Shown here piece by piece: positions 31,056-41,584 of a stretch of 45,483 nt of DNA (the first letter of the stretch is position 1; each line of letters starts with the position of its first letter). The DNA comes from Pseudomonadota bacterium (GTDB lineage: Bacteria > Vulcanimicrobiota > Xenobia > RGZZ01). The stretch spans positions 1 to 45,483 of the forward strand of contig RGZZ01000002.1 of assembly GCA_010028905.1 (NCBI GenBank), written 5' to 3'. The notes beneath the pieces were generated by a model that was given only the letters and a program-made list of their open reading frames with translations, was not told the origin of the DNA and searched no databases. The position numbers and the translations under genes are program-made.

Positions 31056-32150
31056 TTGCCCTACGAGACCGTAGAGATTCCCCGGCCGACAGAGGTCGAC
31101 GACCACGAGGTCATGCGCGCCGTCGACCGCATGGCGGTCTTCGGCTACCTGGGGCAGATGGTGAACGTGGGCATCCCCCTCGCGCGCGCGCTCGACTCCA
31201 TCGCCGAGCAGTACCCAGACGGGCATACCCGCGCCGTGCTCTCGCGCCTCGGCCTCGAGCTCCGACACGGGGCGGCGCTCTCCACCGCGATGCGCCGCTT
31301 CCCCGGCTCGTTCTCTGCGCTTCACGTCGGCGTCATCGCCGCGGGGGAGACGAGCGGTCGACTGGCGCCCTGCCTGCAACGGCTCGCGCGTCATGAAGAG
31401 CGCTGGTTCTCGCTGACGCGACAGGTTCGCGCGATGATGGTGTACCCGCTCTTCGTCTTCGGTGCCGCCCTGGTTCTGATCACCGGTCTGGCTCAGGTTC
31501 TGGTGAGCGGTGTGGCGCCCATCGTGGCTGACGCGAAGATCAAGATGAACCCGCTCTCGAGGCTGGTGTTCTGGGTTGCAGGGGGGCTTCGAAATCCAGC
31601 GGCGTGGGCGCTCGTTCTTGCAGGAGGGATTGTTCTGGGGGTTGCGCTCGCGCGATGGCGTCGAAGTCCGGGAGGACAGCGCGCACTGGAGCGGCTGGTT
31701 CTGCGTCTCCCGCTGGTGGGCGAGATCACGCGCAAGATCGAGGCCGCCCGGGTGTGTGAGTCGCTGGCCACCTTGCACGAGAGCGGCGTGGCCATCTCGC
31801 GGGCGCTCATCATGACCGCGAACGCCTGCGAGACAGAGGCGTGTCGCCAGGCGCTGCTCGACGTGGAGAGCCGCGTGGTGAACGGGATGACTCTCTCGGA
31901 GGCGTTTGAGCGAAGTGGATTCTTCCACATCTCCGTGGCGCACATGGTGGCGGTGGGAGAGACTTCGGGCAAGCTCACGTCGATGCTGATCCGCTCCGCG
32001 GGCTACCACGATCTCGAGGTGCGGACGGCTCTCGAGCAGTTTGCCGCGGCGCTCGAGCCCATGATGATCTCAGGACTGGGCGTTCTCGTGGCCGTCATCA
32101 TCCTGCTTGCGTTTGCGCCCCTCTATCAGCTCGTGTCTGGTCTCAGCTGA
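31056..32150 (+). CDS. Type II secretion / type IV pilus platform protein (GspF/PilC family, two T2SSF domains)
   Basis: Two copies of the T2SSF pattern (G.PL..AL........R..L..L...L..G..LS.A....P..F......V.AGE.SG.L) are separated by TM helices. The start is uncertain: TTG 31056 or ATG 31113. No adjacent GspE/PilB ATPase gene. Confidence 0.82.
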   Translation: MPYETVEIPRPTEVDDHEVMRAVDRMAVFGYLGQMVNVGIPLARALDSIAEQYPDGHTRAVLSRLGLELRHGAALSTAMRRFPGSFSALHVGVIAAGETSGRLAPCLQRLARHEERWFSLTRQVRAMMVYPLFVFGAALVLITGLAQVLVSGVAPIVADAKIKMNPLSRLVFWVAGGLRNPAAWALVLAGGIVLGVALARWRRSPGGQRALERLVLRLPLVGEITRKIEAARVCESLATLHESGVAISRALIMTANACETEACRQALLDVESRVVNGMTLSEAFERSGFFHISVAHMVAVGETSGKLTSMLIRSAGYHDLEVRTALEQFAAALEPMMISGLGVLVAVIILLAFAPLYQLVSGLS

Positions 32151-32208
32151 GCATAGAGGGCCAGTCGGGCTCTCTGGCAAACATGTGCAATCTGAGAGGG
32201 AGGCCCCC

Positions 32209-39339: not shown

Positions 39340-39403
39340 ACTGCCCCTCCCTCTCCTCTTGGCGCACGGCCGCTGACATCGAGGCCGTTGACCTGCACCG
39401 GCC

Positions 39404-41584
39404 TCACTCCACGCGATCGGCGTCTCCTCGAACTGCGAGGAGCTTTGTCACGAACGCGTCGGAGGTGAAGATCTCGACGAGCTCGGGGTTGAAGTGGGTC
39501 CCCGATTCCTCTCGCATGATCTCGATGCACTTCTCGATGGGCATCGCCGGCTTGTACGGGCGCGCCTTGCTCAGCGCGTCGTAGAAGTCGCAGATGGAGA
39601 CGACCTGCGCCTTTTGCGGGATCTCGCGTCCCTTCTTGCCGAACGGGTATCCGCTCCCGTTCCACTTCTCGTGGTGGTATTGAACGATGTCGAGCACCTT
39701 CCAGGGCAGATCGATGTCCTTGAGGATGTCGTATCCGAGGGTGGGATGCTGCTCGATGACCCATCGCTCCTCTTCGTTGAGCTTGCCTGGCTTGTTGAGG
39801 ACATAGTCGGGAACCGCGATCTTGCCGATGTCGTGCAGCATGCCTCCCATGTGGACGGTGTCGACGTCATCGGCGCTCAGCCCGAGATGCGTGGCGAAGG
39901 TTCGCGCGAAATCAGAGACGCGCATGGAGTGATGGCGGGTCATGGTGTCTCTTGCGTCGACAGCCGTTGCCAGCGCTTTGATGGTCTTGGCGTATACCTG
40001 CTTGAGGTGGGCTTCCGCGTGACGCAGGCGCTCTGACTTGGCGGCGTGCTCGATGCCGATGGCCGCCAGCAGCTGCATCGTCGAGAACAAGGCGAGATCA
40101 CTCTCGCTGGTGGCGTTCATCTTCGAGGATGCCTTGTTGTACTCGCTCACCGCCTGCTCGTAGTCGCCGGTGCGCGAGTAGGCCGCGCCGAGGGCGAAGT
40201 TCGCGTAGGGGCTGTCGGGCTGGTACGACGCAACACGGCCATACTCTTCGATGGCGCGGTCGAGGTTCTGTGCTTTGAAGAGCGCCGCGCCGAGGAAGTA
40301 GTGGGCCTCGGAATCGCGGGGGTTGGCCGCCAGGATGGTCTCGAACTCGGTGATGGCGTCGTCTAGGTCGCCGCTCTGGAACAGGGCGACCCCGAGAGCG
40401 TTGCGGGTGCGACTGTCCCGGGGGTCTCGCTGCAGCGCTTCGCGATACGCGTCGATGGCGTCGTAGACGCGGCCCAGCTTCATGCATGCCTGCCCCAGGG
40501 CATATCCGGCATAGGCGTGGTTCGGGCTCGCCTTCAGCGCCTGCGAATGGCTGACCGCTGCCTCTTCGTACTGGCCACGCTGGTAGTCGATGAGCCCCTT
40601 GTAGTAGTAGGCTTCGGCATCGAGGGGGTCGAGGTCGATGGCCGCGGCAAACGAGCGCTGCGCGGCTTCGAGCCGGCCGAGGGTCTTCTGCATCAGGCCC
40701 AGATGGAACCAGGCCTCCCGATATCTCGGATGGGCCTGGGCGGCTCGCTCATAGGCCGCCTGGGCCTCTTCCATGCGGTACTGCTTCTCGCGGATCTGCC
40801 CCAGCTGGAAGAGCGCCTCGGCATAGCCGGGGCGCACGTCCAGCGCCCGCTCGAGCTGGACCACGGCCTCCTCCCACTGCGACTGCGAGGCATGGATGAG
40901 CGCGAGATGGAACAGGGCCTTCACGTGACGGGGCTTGAGCGCGAGGGTCTTCTGCAGGTGCGCCACGGCCTGTGCGCGGTTGCCCTGACGCAAGGTGGCC
41001 AGCCCCAGCTGATACCAGGCGTTGGCGAAGGTGGGGCGCAGCTCGAGCTCACGCGTGAGGTAGCCGATGACGGCGTCAGCGCGCGCCTTGCGCCGCCAGA
41101 TGAGAGCCAGGAAGTAGTAGGCCCCCTCGAAGCGCGGGTTGAGCGTGAGCGTGCGCTCGAATGCGTGGACGGCTTCGTCGCCTCTTCCCAGGACCAGCAG
41201 GGCGCGGCCGAGGTTGAAGTGGGTGACGGCGTTGTCCGGACTCATCTCGCGGTAGCGGTCCCAGAGGCTGCCCGCCACGTGCAGGGTCGACTGGCGGCTG
41301 TGGTCTATGCCATCGAGGCTGAAGTCGCCGTCTTCGTCGACCAGGCGATCCCATGAGGTGAGAGCGTTGTCGTAGGCTTGCATGCGCGTGTAGACGATGC
41401 CCAGCTCGAACAGGGCGGGGAGGTGGCCCGGATGCAGCTGCAGCGCCTTCTCGAGCTCGCGGATGGCGCGTTCGTACAGGCCTTCCTCTTCGAGCAGCCT
41501 TCCCAGCTCGTAGCGCGCCTGCAGGTTGGTGGGCGTTTCGACCAGGCTCTTCTCGAGCTGGCGGATGAGAAAATCGTTCTTCAT
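39404..41584 (-). CDS. TPR-repeat protein with C-terminal HD-GYP domain (putative c-di-GMP phosphodiesterase)
   Basis: About 480 aa of TPR repeats, then HHSMRVS...MLHDIGKIAVP...HP..G...L...VQYHHEKWNGSGYPFGKKG...ICDFYDAL. I read no receiver domain. ATG 41584 is preferred over the ORF-track 41728. Confidence 0.85.
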   Translation of the reverse strand: MKNDFLIRQLEKSLVETPTNLQARYELGRLLEEEGLYERAIRELEKALQLHPGHLPALFELGIVYTRMQAYDNALTSWDRLVDEDGDFSLDGIDHSRQSTLHVAGSLWDRYREMSPDNAVTHFNLGRALLVLGRGDEAVHAFERTLTLNPRFEGAYYFLALIWRRKARADAVIGYLTRELELRPTFANAWYQLGLATLRQGNRAQAVAHLQKTLALKPRHVKALFHLALIHASQSQWEEAVVQLERALDVRPGYAEALFQLGQIREKQYRMEEAQAAYERAAQAHPRYREAWFHLGLMQKTLGRLEAAQRSFAAAIDLDPLDAEAYYYKGLIDYQRGQYEEAAVSHSQALKASPNHAYAGYALGQACMKLGRVYDAIDAYREALQRDPRDSRTRNALGVALFQSGDLDDAITEFETILAANPRDSEAHYFLGAALFKAQNLDRAIEEYGRVASYQPDSPYANFALGAAYSRTGDYEQAVSEYNKASSKMNATSESDLALFSTMQLLAAIGIEHAAKSERLRHAEAHLKQVYAKTIKALATAVDARDTMTRHHSMRVSDFARTFATHLGLSADDVDTVHMGGMLHDIGKIAVPDYVLNKPGKLNEEERWVIEQHPTLGYDILKDIDLPWKVLDIVQYHHEKWNGSGYPFGKKGREIPQKAQVVSICDFYDALSKARPYKPAMPIEKCIEIMREESGTHFNPELVEIFTSDAFVTKLLAVRGDADRVE

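Follow-up and report, generated by a model that had tools for sequence, protein, structure and literature searches.

A probable minor-pilin tip cassette beside platform and nucleotide-signalling genes

Within the window, the whole stretch of 45,483 nucleotides analysed here, the minus-strand genes at 36755–33479 probably encode a three-protein minor-pilin set that primes or caps a type IV filament, is linked to signalling, and has subclade-specific additions in the form of an amidase and a double zinc ribbon/TY-Chap protein (ZnR-TY-Chap). By comparison of gene neighbourhoods, the cassette was shown to travel with a PilC-like gene and with predicted nucleotide- and phospho-signalling genes (GAF-cyclase, HD-GYP or PilZ, and Ser/Thr kinases). 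While a preliminary description of this DNA did not recognise a described operon type, the core cassette is, by analogy with cyanobacterial PilX proteins of the same design, of a known kind: minor-pilin sets headed by a beta-solenoid PilX or ComZ have been described in Thermus (PMC6561018) and cyanobacteria (bioRxiv 10.64898/2026.02.12.705559), where ComZ and PilX are tip or priming pilins. The further suggestion of the preliminary description, that these are tip or priming genes serving a pilus whose own genes lie elsewhere, fits.

The pilin trio and its largest member

An ORF check of the window placed all eight ORFs where the preliminary description had put them, with the same gap sizes and convergent layout. 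The three pilin genes are joined by 4-nt overlaps, pseudopilin A with pseudopilin B at 36369/36366 and B with the large protein at 35644/35641. Upstream of them lie in turn the ZnR-TY-Chap gene (gap of 11 nt, 36767 vs 36755), the amidase gene (110 nt, 37501 vs 37390) and the TPR-HD-GYP gene (64 nt, 39404 vs 39339), and the cyclase gene converges on this array from the other side, the two stops lying 10 nt apart (33468 vs 33479). In the divergent intergenic region (41585–41738, minus strand), the sequence TTCACA-16-AACAAT at 41685–41658 is promoter-like by consensus match only and is a possible start of the array.

Pseudopilin A (36366–36755, minus strand, 129 aa) is a GspI/PilV/ComGE-like minor pilin with the leader ...RPRG/FTLIEV, and pseudopilin B (35641–36369, minus strand, 242 aa) is GspJ/PilW-sized with the leader MRRG/MTLIEV. 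Both carry G-1 and E+5 and match N_methyl (E 3.5e-5 for A, 1e-5 for B), and B also scores above the TIGR02532 cut-off; in both genes the prepilin motif exceeds its cut-off, and the earlier pseudopilin calls hold. Among NCBIfam profiles, A matched XpsI (E 2.6e-7 over 103 residues) and further PilV, ComGE and Verru_Chthon cassette protein B, all of them sub-threshold.

The third protein, here called Large (33479–35644, minus strand, 721 aa), begins with a class III-like signal of the GspK type, PRG/GALLLVLLVL, without E+5, and this basic-Gly-hydrophobic pattern lacking E+5 is conserved across its uncurated family of about 143 representatives. Large has no Pfam match, likewise 0/30 family members, and its N-terminal match to the GspK profile is weak and sub-threshold (E 0.03). 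In the AF2 model (pLDDT 82, pTM 0.85), a 63-residue N-terminal alpha1 helix (residues 25–87) is followed by a beta-rich body. ComZ (6QVI) was the only significant Foldseek match of this model in the PDB (E 3.5e-4, probability 0.94), with a low global TM of 0.19–0.24 and 10% identity, and in profile searches Large showed no link by sequence to ComZ, to GspK or to a pilin of solved structure. The model supports the assignment of Large as a GspK/PilX-class pilin with a beta-rich insertion, whose topology was read from the order of secondary-structure elements, and this agrees with the earlier call of a PilX/GspK-like beta protein. The ends of the protein are conserved (residues ~20–225 and ~560–720; 59–67% identity among close relatives) and enclose a hypervariable beta-rich middle (226–560; 26–33%). 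Because hypervariability is expected of an exposed tip part, the middle may well be that part.

Consistent with the preliminary description, when the main ORFs were scanned against Pfam and all six frames for prepilin motifs, the window yielded neither an extension ATPase nor a secretin, a prepilin peptidase or a major pilin; in the six-frame scan, neither a fourth minor pilin (GspH/FimU/FimT-like) nor a major pilin was found nearby. In Armatimonadota, the phylum in which the analysis placed the uncultured host, the genome of a cultured member contains PilB, C, D, Q and M together with six PilT genes and 79 for pseudopilins (PMC4072686), and a machine encoded elsewhere is therefore plausible.

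Based on a comparison of about eight independent neighbourhoods, conservation of the trio as a unit across divergent lineages is supported. Orthologues of pilin B adjoin the Large gene, with those of pilin A upstream of both, in ten related loci (L001–L004, L008, L016, L021, L025, L026 and L028). The three families are adjacent in L016, L017, L021, L025, L026 and L028, with Large identity down to 21%. Of the eight lineages that fall outside the ZnR-TY-Chap clade to which the window belongs, six have the same two pilin families ahead of Large; L020 and L022 hold Large family members without adjacent pilins.

Neighbouring genes in the window and in related loci

On the plus strand, the PilC/GspF-family platform protein (31056–32150, 364 aa) matches T2SSF in two stretches (E 2e-45) and scores below the NCBIfam equivalog cut-offs of GspF, PilC, HofC and ComGB. 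It is followed by a protein with Pfam GAF and class III nucleotide cyclase domains (32209–33468, plus strand, 419 aa), in which alignment with orthologues showed that the Asp for metal binding and the catalytic Asn/Arg pair are present; the substrate-specifying Lys position holds Thr (LFTYMGD), and the L021 orthologue retains Lys (LKFLGD). At the head of the minus-strand array, the TPR-HD-GYP protein (39404–41584, 726 aa) matches TPR families and HD_5 (E 1.5e-36), carries the motifs HDIGK and HHEKWNGSGYP, and is predicted to be a phosphodiesterase for c-di-GMP, in which the long TPR part would act as sensor or scaffold. A Ser/Thr protein kinase gene missing from the first list of genes starts at approximately 44511 on the plus strand and extends past the window end at 45483; it was picked up when the kinases of L025, L021 and L028 served as tblastn queries (lowest E 1.9e-45), and its reading frame was checked. 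This gene may belong to the signalling neighbourhood, and L004 has a kinase at the same relative place.

The T2SSF gene adjoins the cyclase gene or the cassette in L001–L003, L026 and L021 and is not beside the cassette in L013, a close relative, or in L025 and L028. Cyclase orthologues adjoin the cassette in L001–L004, L013, L019, L026 and L021, and not in L016, L025 or L028; L026 has both genes beside it. In L001, L004 and L010, but not in L002, the amidase gene is preceded by a TPR-HD-GYP orthologue. In L021, from Eremiobacterota, pilin-pilin-Large, T2SSF, GAF-cyclase (46% identity), TPR-HD-GYP and Ser/Thr kinase genes occur together in a different order and orientation and with unrelated flanks. 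L025 has an RR-HD-GYP gene directly upstream of the cassette and two kinases downstream, and L028 a PilZ gene upstream and a kinase gene overlapping Large by 4 nt. Because L021 keeps the gene set despite its other order, orientation and flanks, and with the signalling genes found next to the cassette in L025 and L028, the comparison supports a functional link, beyond local synteny, between the cassette and the predicted second-messenger genes, a link already drawn in the preliminary description. The occurrence of tip genes beside platform and nucleotide-signalling genes in two phyla suggests that the tip is under signal control.

The exported N-acetylmuramoyl-L-alanine amidase (37501–39339, minus strand, 612 aa) has its catalytic domain at residues 420–594 (Amidase_3, E 1.9e-41), whereas no domain could be assigned to its first 400 residues. 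Orthologue alignments start near residue 31–62 and a signal-peptide-like stretch follows M23, so that translation probably begins at M23 (nt 39273), in which case some 130 nt may separate the gene from that of TPR-HD-GYP. Its closest solved relatives are CwlV, the germination-specific amidase 7RAG and LytH, with a weaker, split match to AmiC, and its best NCBIfam match is CwlD. The AMIN-AMIN part was the one domain call of the preliminary description that did not stand, those of T2SSF, GAF-cyclase, TPR-HD-GYP, amidase, zinc ribbon, TY-Chap/YbjN-like and two prepilins being recovered: AMIN was detected neither in the whole protein at E<=10 nor in two excised segments at E<=1, is not in the precomputed Pfam lists of any amidase orthologue, and the two putative repeats show no significant likeness to each other.

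The ZnR-TY-Chap gene (36767–37390, minus strand), with a GTG start and AGGAGG ahead of it, encodes a cytoplasmic protein of 207 aa in which a double zinc ribbon (DZR, 29.2 bits, above the Pfam cut-off) is joined to a TY-Chap/YbjN-like domain (TY-Chap1, 26.0 bits, 1 bit below the cut-off of 27). Its family consists of only 15 clusters, all 70–99% identical, and the gene was found in two genomes among GTDB species representatives. The AF2 model (pLDDT 47) is too poor for use.

Comparison with known systems

Closest in structure is the Thermus thermophilus ComZ-PilA2 locus (with PilA1 and PilA3; 6QVI; PMC6561018). ComZ, like Large, is a large pilin in which a GspK-like N-terminal part carries a big beta-rich insertion; neither is recognised by standard pilin models, both genes directly follow small pseudopilin genes, and a filament cap is proposed for both. 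Beyond the low identity and global TM and the missing sequence-profile link, the loci differ in that Thermus has three partner pilins rather than two; here no major pilin gene is adjacent, and the Thermus paper (PMC6561018) mentions no neighbouring PilC, cyclase or HD-GYP genes. The cyanobacterial FimT-PilW-PilV-PilX sets (bioRxiv 10.64898/2026.02.12.705559) share, by published description, a bulky-solenoid PilX-type subunit, which has been proposed to plug the tip in place of PilY1 and pairs strictly with a PilV-type pilin. Their genes are under cAMP and c-di-GMP control, and PilX2 has been connected with surface sensing that depends on cAMP (same preprint). However, signalling genes act there in trans, whereas here they are adjacent and conserved with the cassette; a FimT-like gene is absent here, and the lineages are Armatimonadota and Eremiobacterota rather than cyanobacteria.

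The priming or tip logic is also that of the GspH-I-J-K tip of T2SS and of FimU-PilV-W-X-(PilY1) in Pseudomonas and Myxococcus (PMC7541494, PMC5979040), with small I/V-like and J/W-like subunits and a K/X-like subunit without E+5. The present cassette differs from them in having no H/FimU-like subunit or PilY1 and in a K/X subunit that is 2–3 times larger, with a beta-rich insertion; sequence matches to these families are all under the family cut-offs. Verru_Chthon cassettes (TIGR02596, TIGR02598-02600) likewise are stand-alone prepilin-like genes with the large protein last, but number four genes rather than three, and the match of pilin A to their proteins B and C is weak (21.9 bits vs a cut-off of 51.4). 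As for ZnR-TY-Chap, its C-terminal 90 residues resemble T3SS class I chaperones and YbjN (Pfam TY-Chap1, YbjN, CesT_Tir_1): TY-Chap1 matches 15/15 members, some also match YbjN (2/15) or CesT, and the predicted helix, three strands and helix agree with that fold. Unlike in T3SS chaperones, this domain shares its chain with a double zinc ribbon, and the gene lies next to pseudopilin rather than T3SS genes.

Proposed role and competing readings

In the mechanism that we favour, the three pilins would be processed by a prepilin peptidase encoded elsewhere, and would come together through their N-terminal helices on a platform of the PilC type, forming a complex that starts a type IV filament and remains at its tip, the ATPases, secretin, peptidase and major pilin being encoded beyond the window. 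The exposed part would be the bulky, fast-evolving beta-rich insertion of Large, acting as plug, adhesin or DNA receptor. Considering the neighbouring genes, cNMP and c-di-GMP levels may set when the tip set is made or used; alternatively, the tip complex may feed surface contact back into these messengers. More speculatively, the exported amidase might remodel the wall locally and the ZnR-TY-Chap protein might be a cytoplasmic chaperone or regulator.

Whether these last two proteins belong to the module is unproven, as is the earlier idea of a built-in wall-remodelling enzyme and chaperone, and it is quite conceivable, if not the reading we prefer, that only the trio is a functional unit, the amidase being an ordinary cell-separation enzyme that lies upstream by descent in a narrow clade, together with the ZnR-TY-Chap and TPR-HD-GYP genes, all of them unrelated genes with housekeeping or regulatory roles. 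Of the six genes first listed, co-conservation across lineages covers the trio and HD-GYP: the amidase and ZnR-TY-Chap genes adjoin the cassette in one Armatimonadota subclade only, both are lacking from the cassettes of L016, L021, L025 and L028, and no ZnR-TY-Chap gene occurs in the 245 nt available upstream in L026. Membership is unproven because in that subclade the flanks are syntenic too; every locus with both genes also retains MetK, hyp593 and the Gly/Met-rich gene, which makes their synteny uninformative. Separate promoters would fit into the gaps of 64–130 and 110 nt, and the gaps of L007 are 200–400 nt. On the other hand, the amidase is linked to the ZnR-TY-Chap gene in L001, L002, L004, L007, L010 and L014, and the amidase-ZnR-TY-Chap-pilin-pilin-Large block is unbroken in the independent contigs L001–L004, L007 and L014, with breakpoints flanking it on both sides (L002 lost TPR-HD-GYP, L013 T2SSF and L007 the cyclase; L004 gained XisH). 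The ZnR-TY-Chap gene ends 10–60 nt from pilin A in most loci, and no terminator-like site was found in the intergenic gaps of the array. For HD-GYP the restriction to the trio fails, since it recurs in L021 and L025.

Other alternatives concern what the trio itself does. That it is specifically the tip of a competence (DNA-uptake) pilus, with Large as a putative ComZ-like DNA receptor, is a doubtful reading: ComZ, its top and only significant structural match, binds DNA and the neighbouring pilin PilA2 (PMC6561018), and the match of the platform protein to ComGB spans the full profile (positions 6–331 of 332), but identity to ComZ is just 10%, similarly built PilX proteins of cyanobacteria function in motility or adhesion besides competence, the hypervariable middle suits an adhesin or a phage/predator target better than a conserved DNA-binding surface, and comEA, comEC and dprA are not nearby. 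It is less likely still that the trio forms the GspI-GspJ-GspK tip in a pseudopilus for type II secretion, with the T2SSF gene as GspF and protein secretion rather than a surface pilus as its role. Among NCBIfam profiles the platform protein scores best with GspF (230.7 bits), pilin A is nearest to XpsI (= GspI), Large has its weak GspK match, and the LptB and LptF/G genes of the window indicate a diderm host; however, the GspF, XpsI and GspK scores are all far under the equivalog cut-offs. T2SS genes are usually clustered, which counts against this reading, and GspD, E, G, H, C, L and M genes are not in the window or any related locus. Moreover, the only significant structural match is to a T4P or competence tip pilin, and the insertion of GspK is alpha-helical, not beta-rich (PMC6561018). 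Finally, it is highly improbable that Large is no filament subunit and instead a beta-helix adhesin or enzyme, secreted or anchored in the membrane, with a hydrophobic N-terminus, as its lack of Pfam or PDB sequence matches and the solitary members in L020 and L022 would allow, given that its GspK-type N-terminal pattern is conserved and leads into a long helix typical of pilins, and that its gene overlaps a prepilin gene and, across six divergent lineages, adjoins members of the two pilin families found here.

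Layout of the locus and the two small pilins

On the minus strand of the window, three co-conserved prepilin-type genes lie together, with a ComZ-like model for the product of the largest and with PilC-family and signalling genes as recurrent neighbours. We infer that this trio would be the tip or priming cassette of a filament encoded elsewhere. It comprises pilin A (36366..36755), pilin B (35641..36369) and a 721-aa protein, here called Large (33479..35644), preceded in the same array by genes for a TPR-HD-GYP protein (39404..41584), an amidase (37501..39339) and a zinc-ribbon protein, ZnR-TY-Chap (36767..37390). 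A T2SSF platform gene (31056..32150) and a GAF-cyclase gene (32209..33468), both on the plus strand, converge on this array, the stop codons of cyclase and Large being 10 nt apart (33468/33479). The ORF table bears out the preliminary description, every gene named there being present at these coordinates; along the array, gaps of 64, 110 and 11 nt give way to two overlaps of 4 nt each. Its domain calls were recovered in Pfam and NCBIfam scans as two T2SSF domains, GAF with a class III cyclase, TPR with HD_5, Amidase_3, a double zinc ribbon with TY-Chap1, and two prepilins; the AMIN domains that it placed in the amidase were not. A terminator/promoter scan found no intergenic terminator on the minus strand and, as weak evidence, one promoter-like site upstream of the TPR-HD-GYP gene. 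No terminator-like structure was seen between the cyclase and Large gene ends either (33468-33479, opposite strands); the 3' ends of the two transcripts probably overlap, and such an overlap could couple the expression of the two genes.

Both small pilins carry a basic leader, Gly at -1, a hydrophobic stretch and Glu at +5 (RPRG/FTLIEV in pilin A and RRG/MTLIEV in pilin B). They score 23.6 and 25.3 bits, respectively, against the Pfam N_methyl cut-off of 21.2 and also exceed the cut-off of TIGR02532, so that the class III signal on which the earlier pseudopilin calls depended is confirmed by HMMs in both. A six-frame motif scan of the window detected prepilin motifs in these two proteins only, and both are predicted to be cleaved and N-methylated by prepilin peptidase and built into a filament. 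Along most of its length, pilin A matches XpsI (GspI), PilV and ComGE at sub-threshold scores, while pilin B has the size of GspJ/PilW and is matched by known models at its N-terminus only; PDB sequence searches with the profiles of pilin A and pilin B returned nothing useful.

Pfam scans of the main ORFs, together with the six-frame prepilin-motif search, agree with the preliminary description that the window contains no pilus ATPase, secretin, prepilin peptidase or major pilin. Nor was a complete T4P/T2SS set found in the window or within 10 kb in related loci of other genomes (from the series L001 to L028), where extension ATPase, secretin, prepilin peptidase, alignment protein and major (pseudo)pilin were all missing. 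The platform gene itself has two T2SSF stretches (Pfam E 2e-45) and aligns to the PilC profile over 65-405 and to the GspF profile over 72-399, with scores below all equivalog cut-offs for assignment to a system (GspF 230.7 vs 424, PilC 186.5 vs 700, HofC 174.9 vs 401, ComGB 97.5 vs 240). At the related locus L016, a short ORF (18267-18605) lying 6.6 kb downstream of the pilin cassette and beside a TPR gene matches the C-terminal T2SSF domain only (31% identity, 113 residues); it may represent a remnant or else a platform-like protein with a single domain.

A probable ComZ-like fold in the large protein

The N-terminus of Large (PRG/GALLLVLLVL) is a GspK-type signal without Glu at +5, and this pattern is kept across its family, for which an exhaustive HMMER search yielded 143 representatives at 50% clustering. 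A word-indexed search with an 85-sequence family profile had only four already-known close relatives among the matches listed, and a locus search with a 12-sequence alignment gave 7 loci. Family members share conserved N-terminal (~20-225) and C-terminal (~560-720) parts around a variable middle. The 721-aa window protein has no Pfam match, and none of 30 family members matched a relevant Pfam family; further, the family profile found no PDB sequence at E<=10, and homology to GspK/PilX/ComZ was not detected at the sequence level, NCBIfam GspK matching the N-terminus only (E 0.03, 13.9 bits vs a cut-off of 130). All four family members seen in source records are named "hypothetical protein".

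The AlphaFold2 model of Large, built from an 85-sequence alignment, has a pLDDT of 82 and a pTM of 0.85 and shows, in order, a 63-residue helix (25-87, pLDDT above 90), a small sheet of four strands, a long β-rich body and a last strand at 711-720. When compared with the PDB by Foldseek, it gave a single significant match, ComZ (6QVI_B, E 3.5e-4, probability 0.94), at a global TM of only 0.19-0.24. ComZ of Thermus thermophilus is a GspK-like pilin with a β-solenoid inserted before the last strand; it binds DNA and the neighbouring pilin PilA2, and its position has been argued to be the pilus tip (PMC6561018). The non-significant runners-up to this match were ice-binding-protein solenoids, the proteins that the ComZ authors found nearest to ComZ's own solenoid (PMC6561018). 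The element order and the conserved ends of Large likewise fit an insertion before the last strand, as read from the order of secondary structure in the model only. Given the low TM to ComZ and a topology read without coordinates, we regard a ComZ-like fold as probable. All cyanobacterial PilX proteins are reported to have the same design, and their solenoid has been proposed as a tip plug in place of PilY1 (bioRxiv 10.64898/2026.02.12.705559).

The middle of Large (~226-560) is indel-rich and only 26-33% identical among close relatives, vs 59-67% in the ends, which is the behaviour expected of an exposed tip domain; diversifying selection acting on a surface-exposed region might account for its hypervariability. 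The same part of the protein holds a low-complexity Gly/Ser/Pro stretch of low model confidence.

Conservation of the cassette and its signalling neighbours

Members of the pilin A and pilin B families precede Large in L001-L004, L007, L014, L016, L017, L021, L025, L026 and L028, the exceptions being L020 and L022, where Large-family members stand without adjoining pilins. Both pilin orthologues lie directly upstream of Large in the close Armatimonadota relatives, with the order pilin A, Large, pilin B in L002, and the distant loci (L016, L017, L021, L025, L026 and L028) keep the pilins at a Large identity of 21-38%. Because the same pilin families adjoin Large in close and distant loci alike, the trio is an old conserved unit. 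Synteny within the close clade (MetK 83-91% identical) proves little, since it extends over the whole region and includes the flanking MetK gene, a Gly/Met-rich gene and a 593-aa gene. There, L002 has no TPR-HD-GYP gene upstream of the amidase, L013 (VGFD01) has no T2SSF gene between cyclase and MetK, and L007 has no cyclase gene after Large; despite such breakpoints elsewhere, the amidase-ZnR-TY-Chap-pilin-pilin-Large block is never interrupted in close relatives. In L004, from a Lake Tanganyika Armatimonadota lineage, a XisH-family gene (11655-12098) is inserted between Large and cyclase, which marks this junction as a recombination-prone spot.

At L021, in the Eremiobacterota MAG GCA_031082125.1, the order pilin-pilin-Large is followed by convergent genes for T2SSF (32% identity), a Ser/Thr kinase and GAF-cyclase (46% identity), and, after one further gene, by a TPR-HD-GYP gene; the flanks are glycine-cleavage and sugar-modification genes and have nothing in common with those of the window. 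Moreover, L026 has cyclase (60%) and T2SSF (41%) genes beside the cassette, L025 has a co-directional response-regulator-HD-GYP gene 180 nt upstream and two convergent kinase genes downstream, and L028 has a PilZ gene upstream and a kinase gene that overlaps the Large gene by 4 nt. HD-GYP, PilZ and class III cyclase genes number only a few per genome, and their recurrence in varied arrangements, observed in a handful of loci, speaks for a functional connection of the cassette with nucleotide signalling. The second-messenger link put forward in the preliminary description is thus supported by the neighbours in L021, L025, L026 and L028. A Ser/Thr kinase gene missing from that description starts near 44511 on the plus strand and runs off the window end (44511-45483). 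Kinases also flank the cassette in L004, L021, L025 and L028, and those of the latter three are alike over ~370 residues, a stretch that goes beyond the kinase domain, and have a conserved non-kinase N-terminal part in common.

The TPR-HD-GYP protein (HD_5 E 1.5e-36) has HDIGK (584) and HHEKWNGSGYP (637) as its HD and HHExxDGxGYP motifs, the latter with Asn where Asp is usual, and is predicted from its sequence to be a c-di-GMP phosphodiesterase. In the cyclase (Pfam Guanylate_cyc E 7e-29), six orthologues share FCDIRGFT, MGDAIM and TVNVAARM without variation, and the two metal-binding Asp residues and the transition-state Asn and Arg are kept. Class III cyclases specify the purine through a residue pair: for ATP, Lys together with Asp or Thr; for GTP, Glu together with Cys or Ser. 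In the window cyclase this canonical pair is absent: the Lys position (residues ~275-285) is Thr in the window clade (LFTYMGD) and Ser in L026. The Eremiobacterota cyclase of L021 keeps the Lys (LKFLGD). The second specificity position is Thr. Thr or Ser in place of the substrate-binding Lys makes the product uncertain, and the window-clade enzyme may make a nucleotide other than cAMP.

The preliminary description had counted the amidase and the chaperone-like gene as parts of the module, and this part of its proposal is unproven, as their linkage to the cassette is confined to one subclade. The cassette occurs without amidase or ZnR-TY-Chap in L016, L021, L025 and L028, and no ZnR-TY-Chap was found in the 245 nt available upstream in L026. 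The amidase matches Amidase_3 at E 1.9e-41 over residues 426-593, with CwlV, a germination-specific amidase (7RAG) and LytH as nearest solved relatives and CwlD as best NCBIfam match; its alignment to AmiC (4BIN) is limited to the catalytic part. The two AMIN domains proposed for its N-terminal part gave no Pfam match with the whole protein at E<=10 or with the two excised segments at E<=1, AMIN is absent from the precomputed lists for seven orthologues, and an internal-repeat BLAST of this part gave E 0.34 in register. In ZnR-TY-Chap, TY-Chap1 scores 26.0 bits vs a cut-off of 27, every one of the 15 family members reaches E<=0.01 (best 3.4e-7), and two members also match YbjN and two CesT_Tir_1. 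A PDB search returned zinc-finger noise only, and an AlphaFold2 model from a shallow alignment has a pLDDT of 47. The family is narrow, with only 15 clusters, all 70-99% identical, among 5.8 billion proteins; GTDB species representatives contain it in 2 MAGs, one labelled Armatimonadetes and the other titled "bacterium", and a relative of Large is named Armatimonadetes/Armatimonadota in NCBI. The ZnR-TY-Chap gene stops 11 nt before the pilin A start, with no terminator-like site found. From the subclade-level linkage, the tight spacing and the lack of terminator-like sites, the two proteins might provide local wall remodelling and cytoplasmic chaperoning, a weaker inference than that for the trio.

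Proposed role of the cassette and features of the flanks

Cumulatively, one part of the earlier module idea stands: the trio is read as a cassette for the tip or priming of a filament whose other genes lie elsewhere, and it is tied to second-messenger genes. Membership of the amidase and the chaperone-like gene is not established. Following the GspIJK, minor-pilin and ComZ literature, the trio proteins would assemble into a tip complex and, on the platform protein, prime a filament, and the variable β-rich domain of Large would be exposed on this complex. The rest of the machine would be encoded elsewhere in the genome. This is a plausible arrangement, given that PilB, C, D, Q, M and PilT genes are scattered in a cultured Armatimonadota genome, which also contains 79 pseudopilin genes (PMC4072686). 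More tentatively, the cyclase and the HD-GYP protein would set the expression or use of the tip set or take input from it, a comparable case being Synechocystis, in which loss of PilX2 lowers the cAMP regulon (bioRxiv 10.64898/2026.02.12.705559).

The core of the cassette is of an already known kind, a ComZ/PilX-type minor-pilin set; what is new is an uncurated tip-pilin family, a signalling neighbourhood kept across two phyla and a possible TY-Chap accessory factor. Minor-pilin tip complexes decide whether a filament is used in adhesion, DNA uptake or sensing and, to our knowledge, are nearly unstudied beyond a few model phyla. As the Large family (~143 representatives) lies outside Pfam and NCBIfam, its ComZ/PilX-like reading opens up pilus-tip annotation in Armatimonadota, Eremiobacterota and related uncultured lineages. 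The position of the cassette beside PilC-like, GAF-cyclase, HD-GYP/PilZ and Ser/Thr kinase genes across phyla suggests a compact unit running from tip to cNMP/c-di-GMP, a link known in Pseudomonas and Synechocystis through dispersed genes only. A far-reaching extension, which we consider unlikely, gives the cassette the role of sensory head in a dedicated signalling unit conserved in Armatimonadota and Eremiobacterota. Contact with a surface or ligand would be passed on by the tip complex, together with a PilC-like platform of its own, to the adjacent Ser/Thr kinase, GAF-cyclase and HD-GYP/PilZ proteins; in the window's subclade, ZnR-TY-Chap would chaperone or target the minor pilins or platform from the cytoplasm, and a dedicated amidase would make an opening or a mark in the wall where assembly takes place. 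We know of no such T3SS-chaperone-like zinc-ribbon role for minor pilins or platform in type IV filament systems, and ZnR-TY-Chap, if it does act on either, would add a new type of accessory factor to these systems.

A mobile element or island was rejected in view of the even GC content (0.61-0.69 over the window) and the housekeeping flanks, which include LptB, LptF/G, SecA, PrfB, PriA and Fmt by Pfam, MetK by tblastn and, as we presume from reading the ORF translation, RlmN. PADLOC found no defence system; the PycC matches of the cyclase reflect generic class III similarity, and there is no Pycsar effector nearby. Rfam searches, run with gathering thresholds for the whole window and with E<=1 for the region, detected no riboswitch, for c-di-GMP or otherwise, and no other family.

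Two plus-strand genes diverge from the TPR-HD-GYP gene and keep their synteny with it in L001 and L004; they encode a 261-aa Gly/Met/His-rich protein with a weak glycine-zipper match (41739-42524) and a helical protein of 593 aa that contains an internal CxxC...CxxC zinc ribbon (42686-44467), neither belonging to a Pfam family. A 1074-aa protein (10841-14065, plus strand) has an N-terminal SLH domain and a coiled-coil region, and its neighbour is an ECF sigma factor gene (14180-14902, plus strand); together with LptB and LptF/G (9-1984), the SLH protein indicates a diderm envelope with SLH-type anchoring. Further along the plus strand, a 1261-aa protein (17698-21483) consists of a Ser/Thr kinase and, fused to it, a TPR array of very great length, and a similar kinase-TPR giant is encoded less than 7 kb from the Eremiobacterota cassette of L021.
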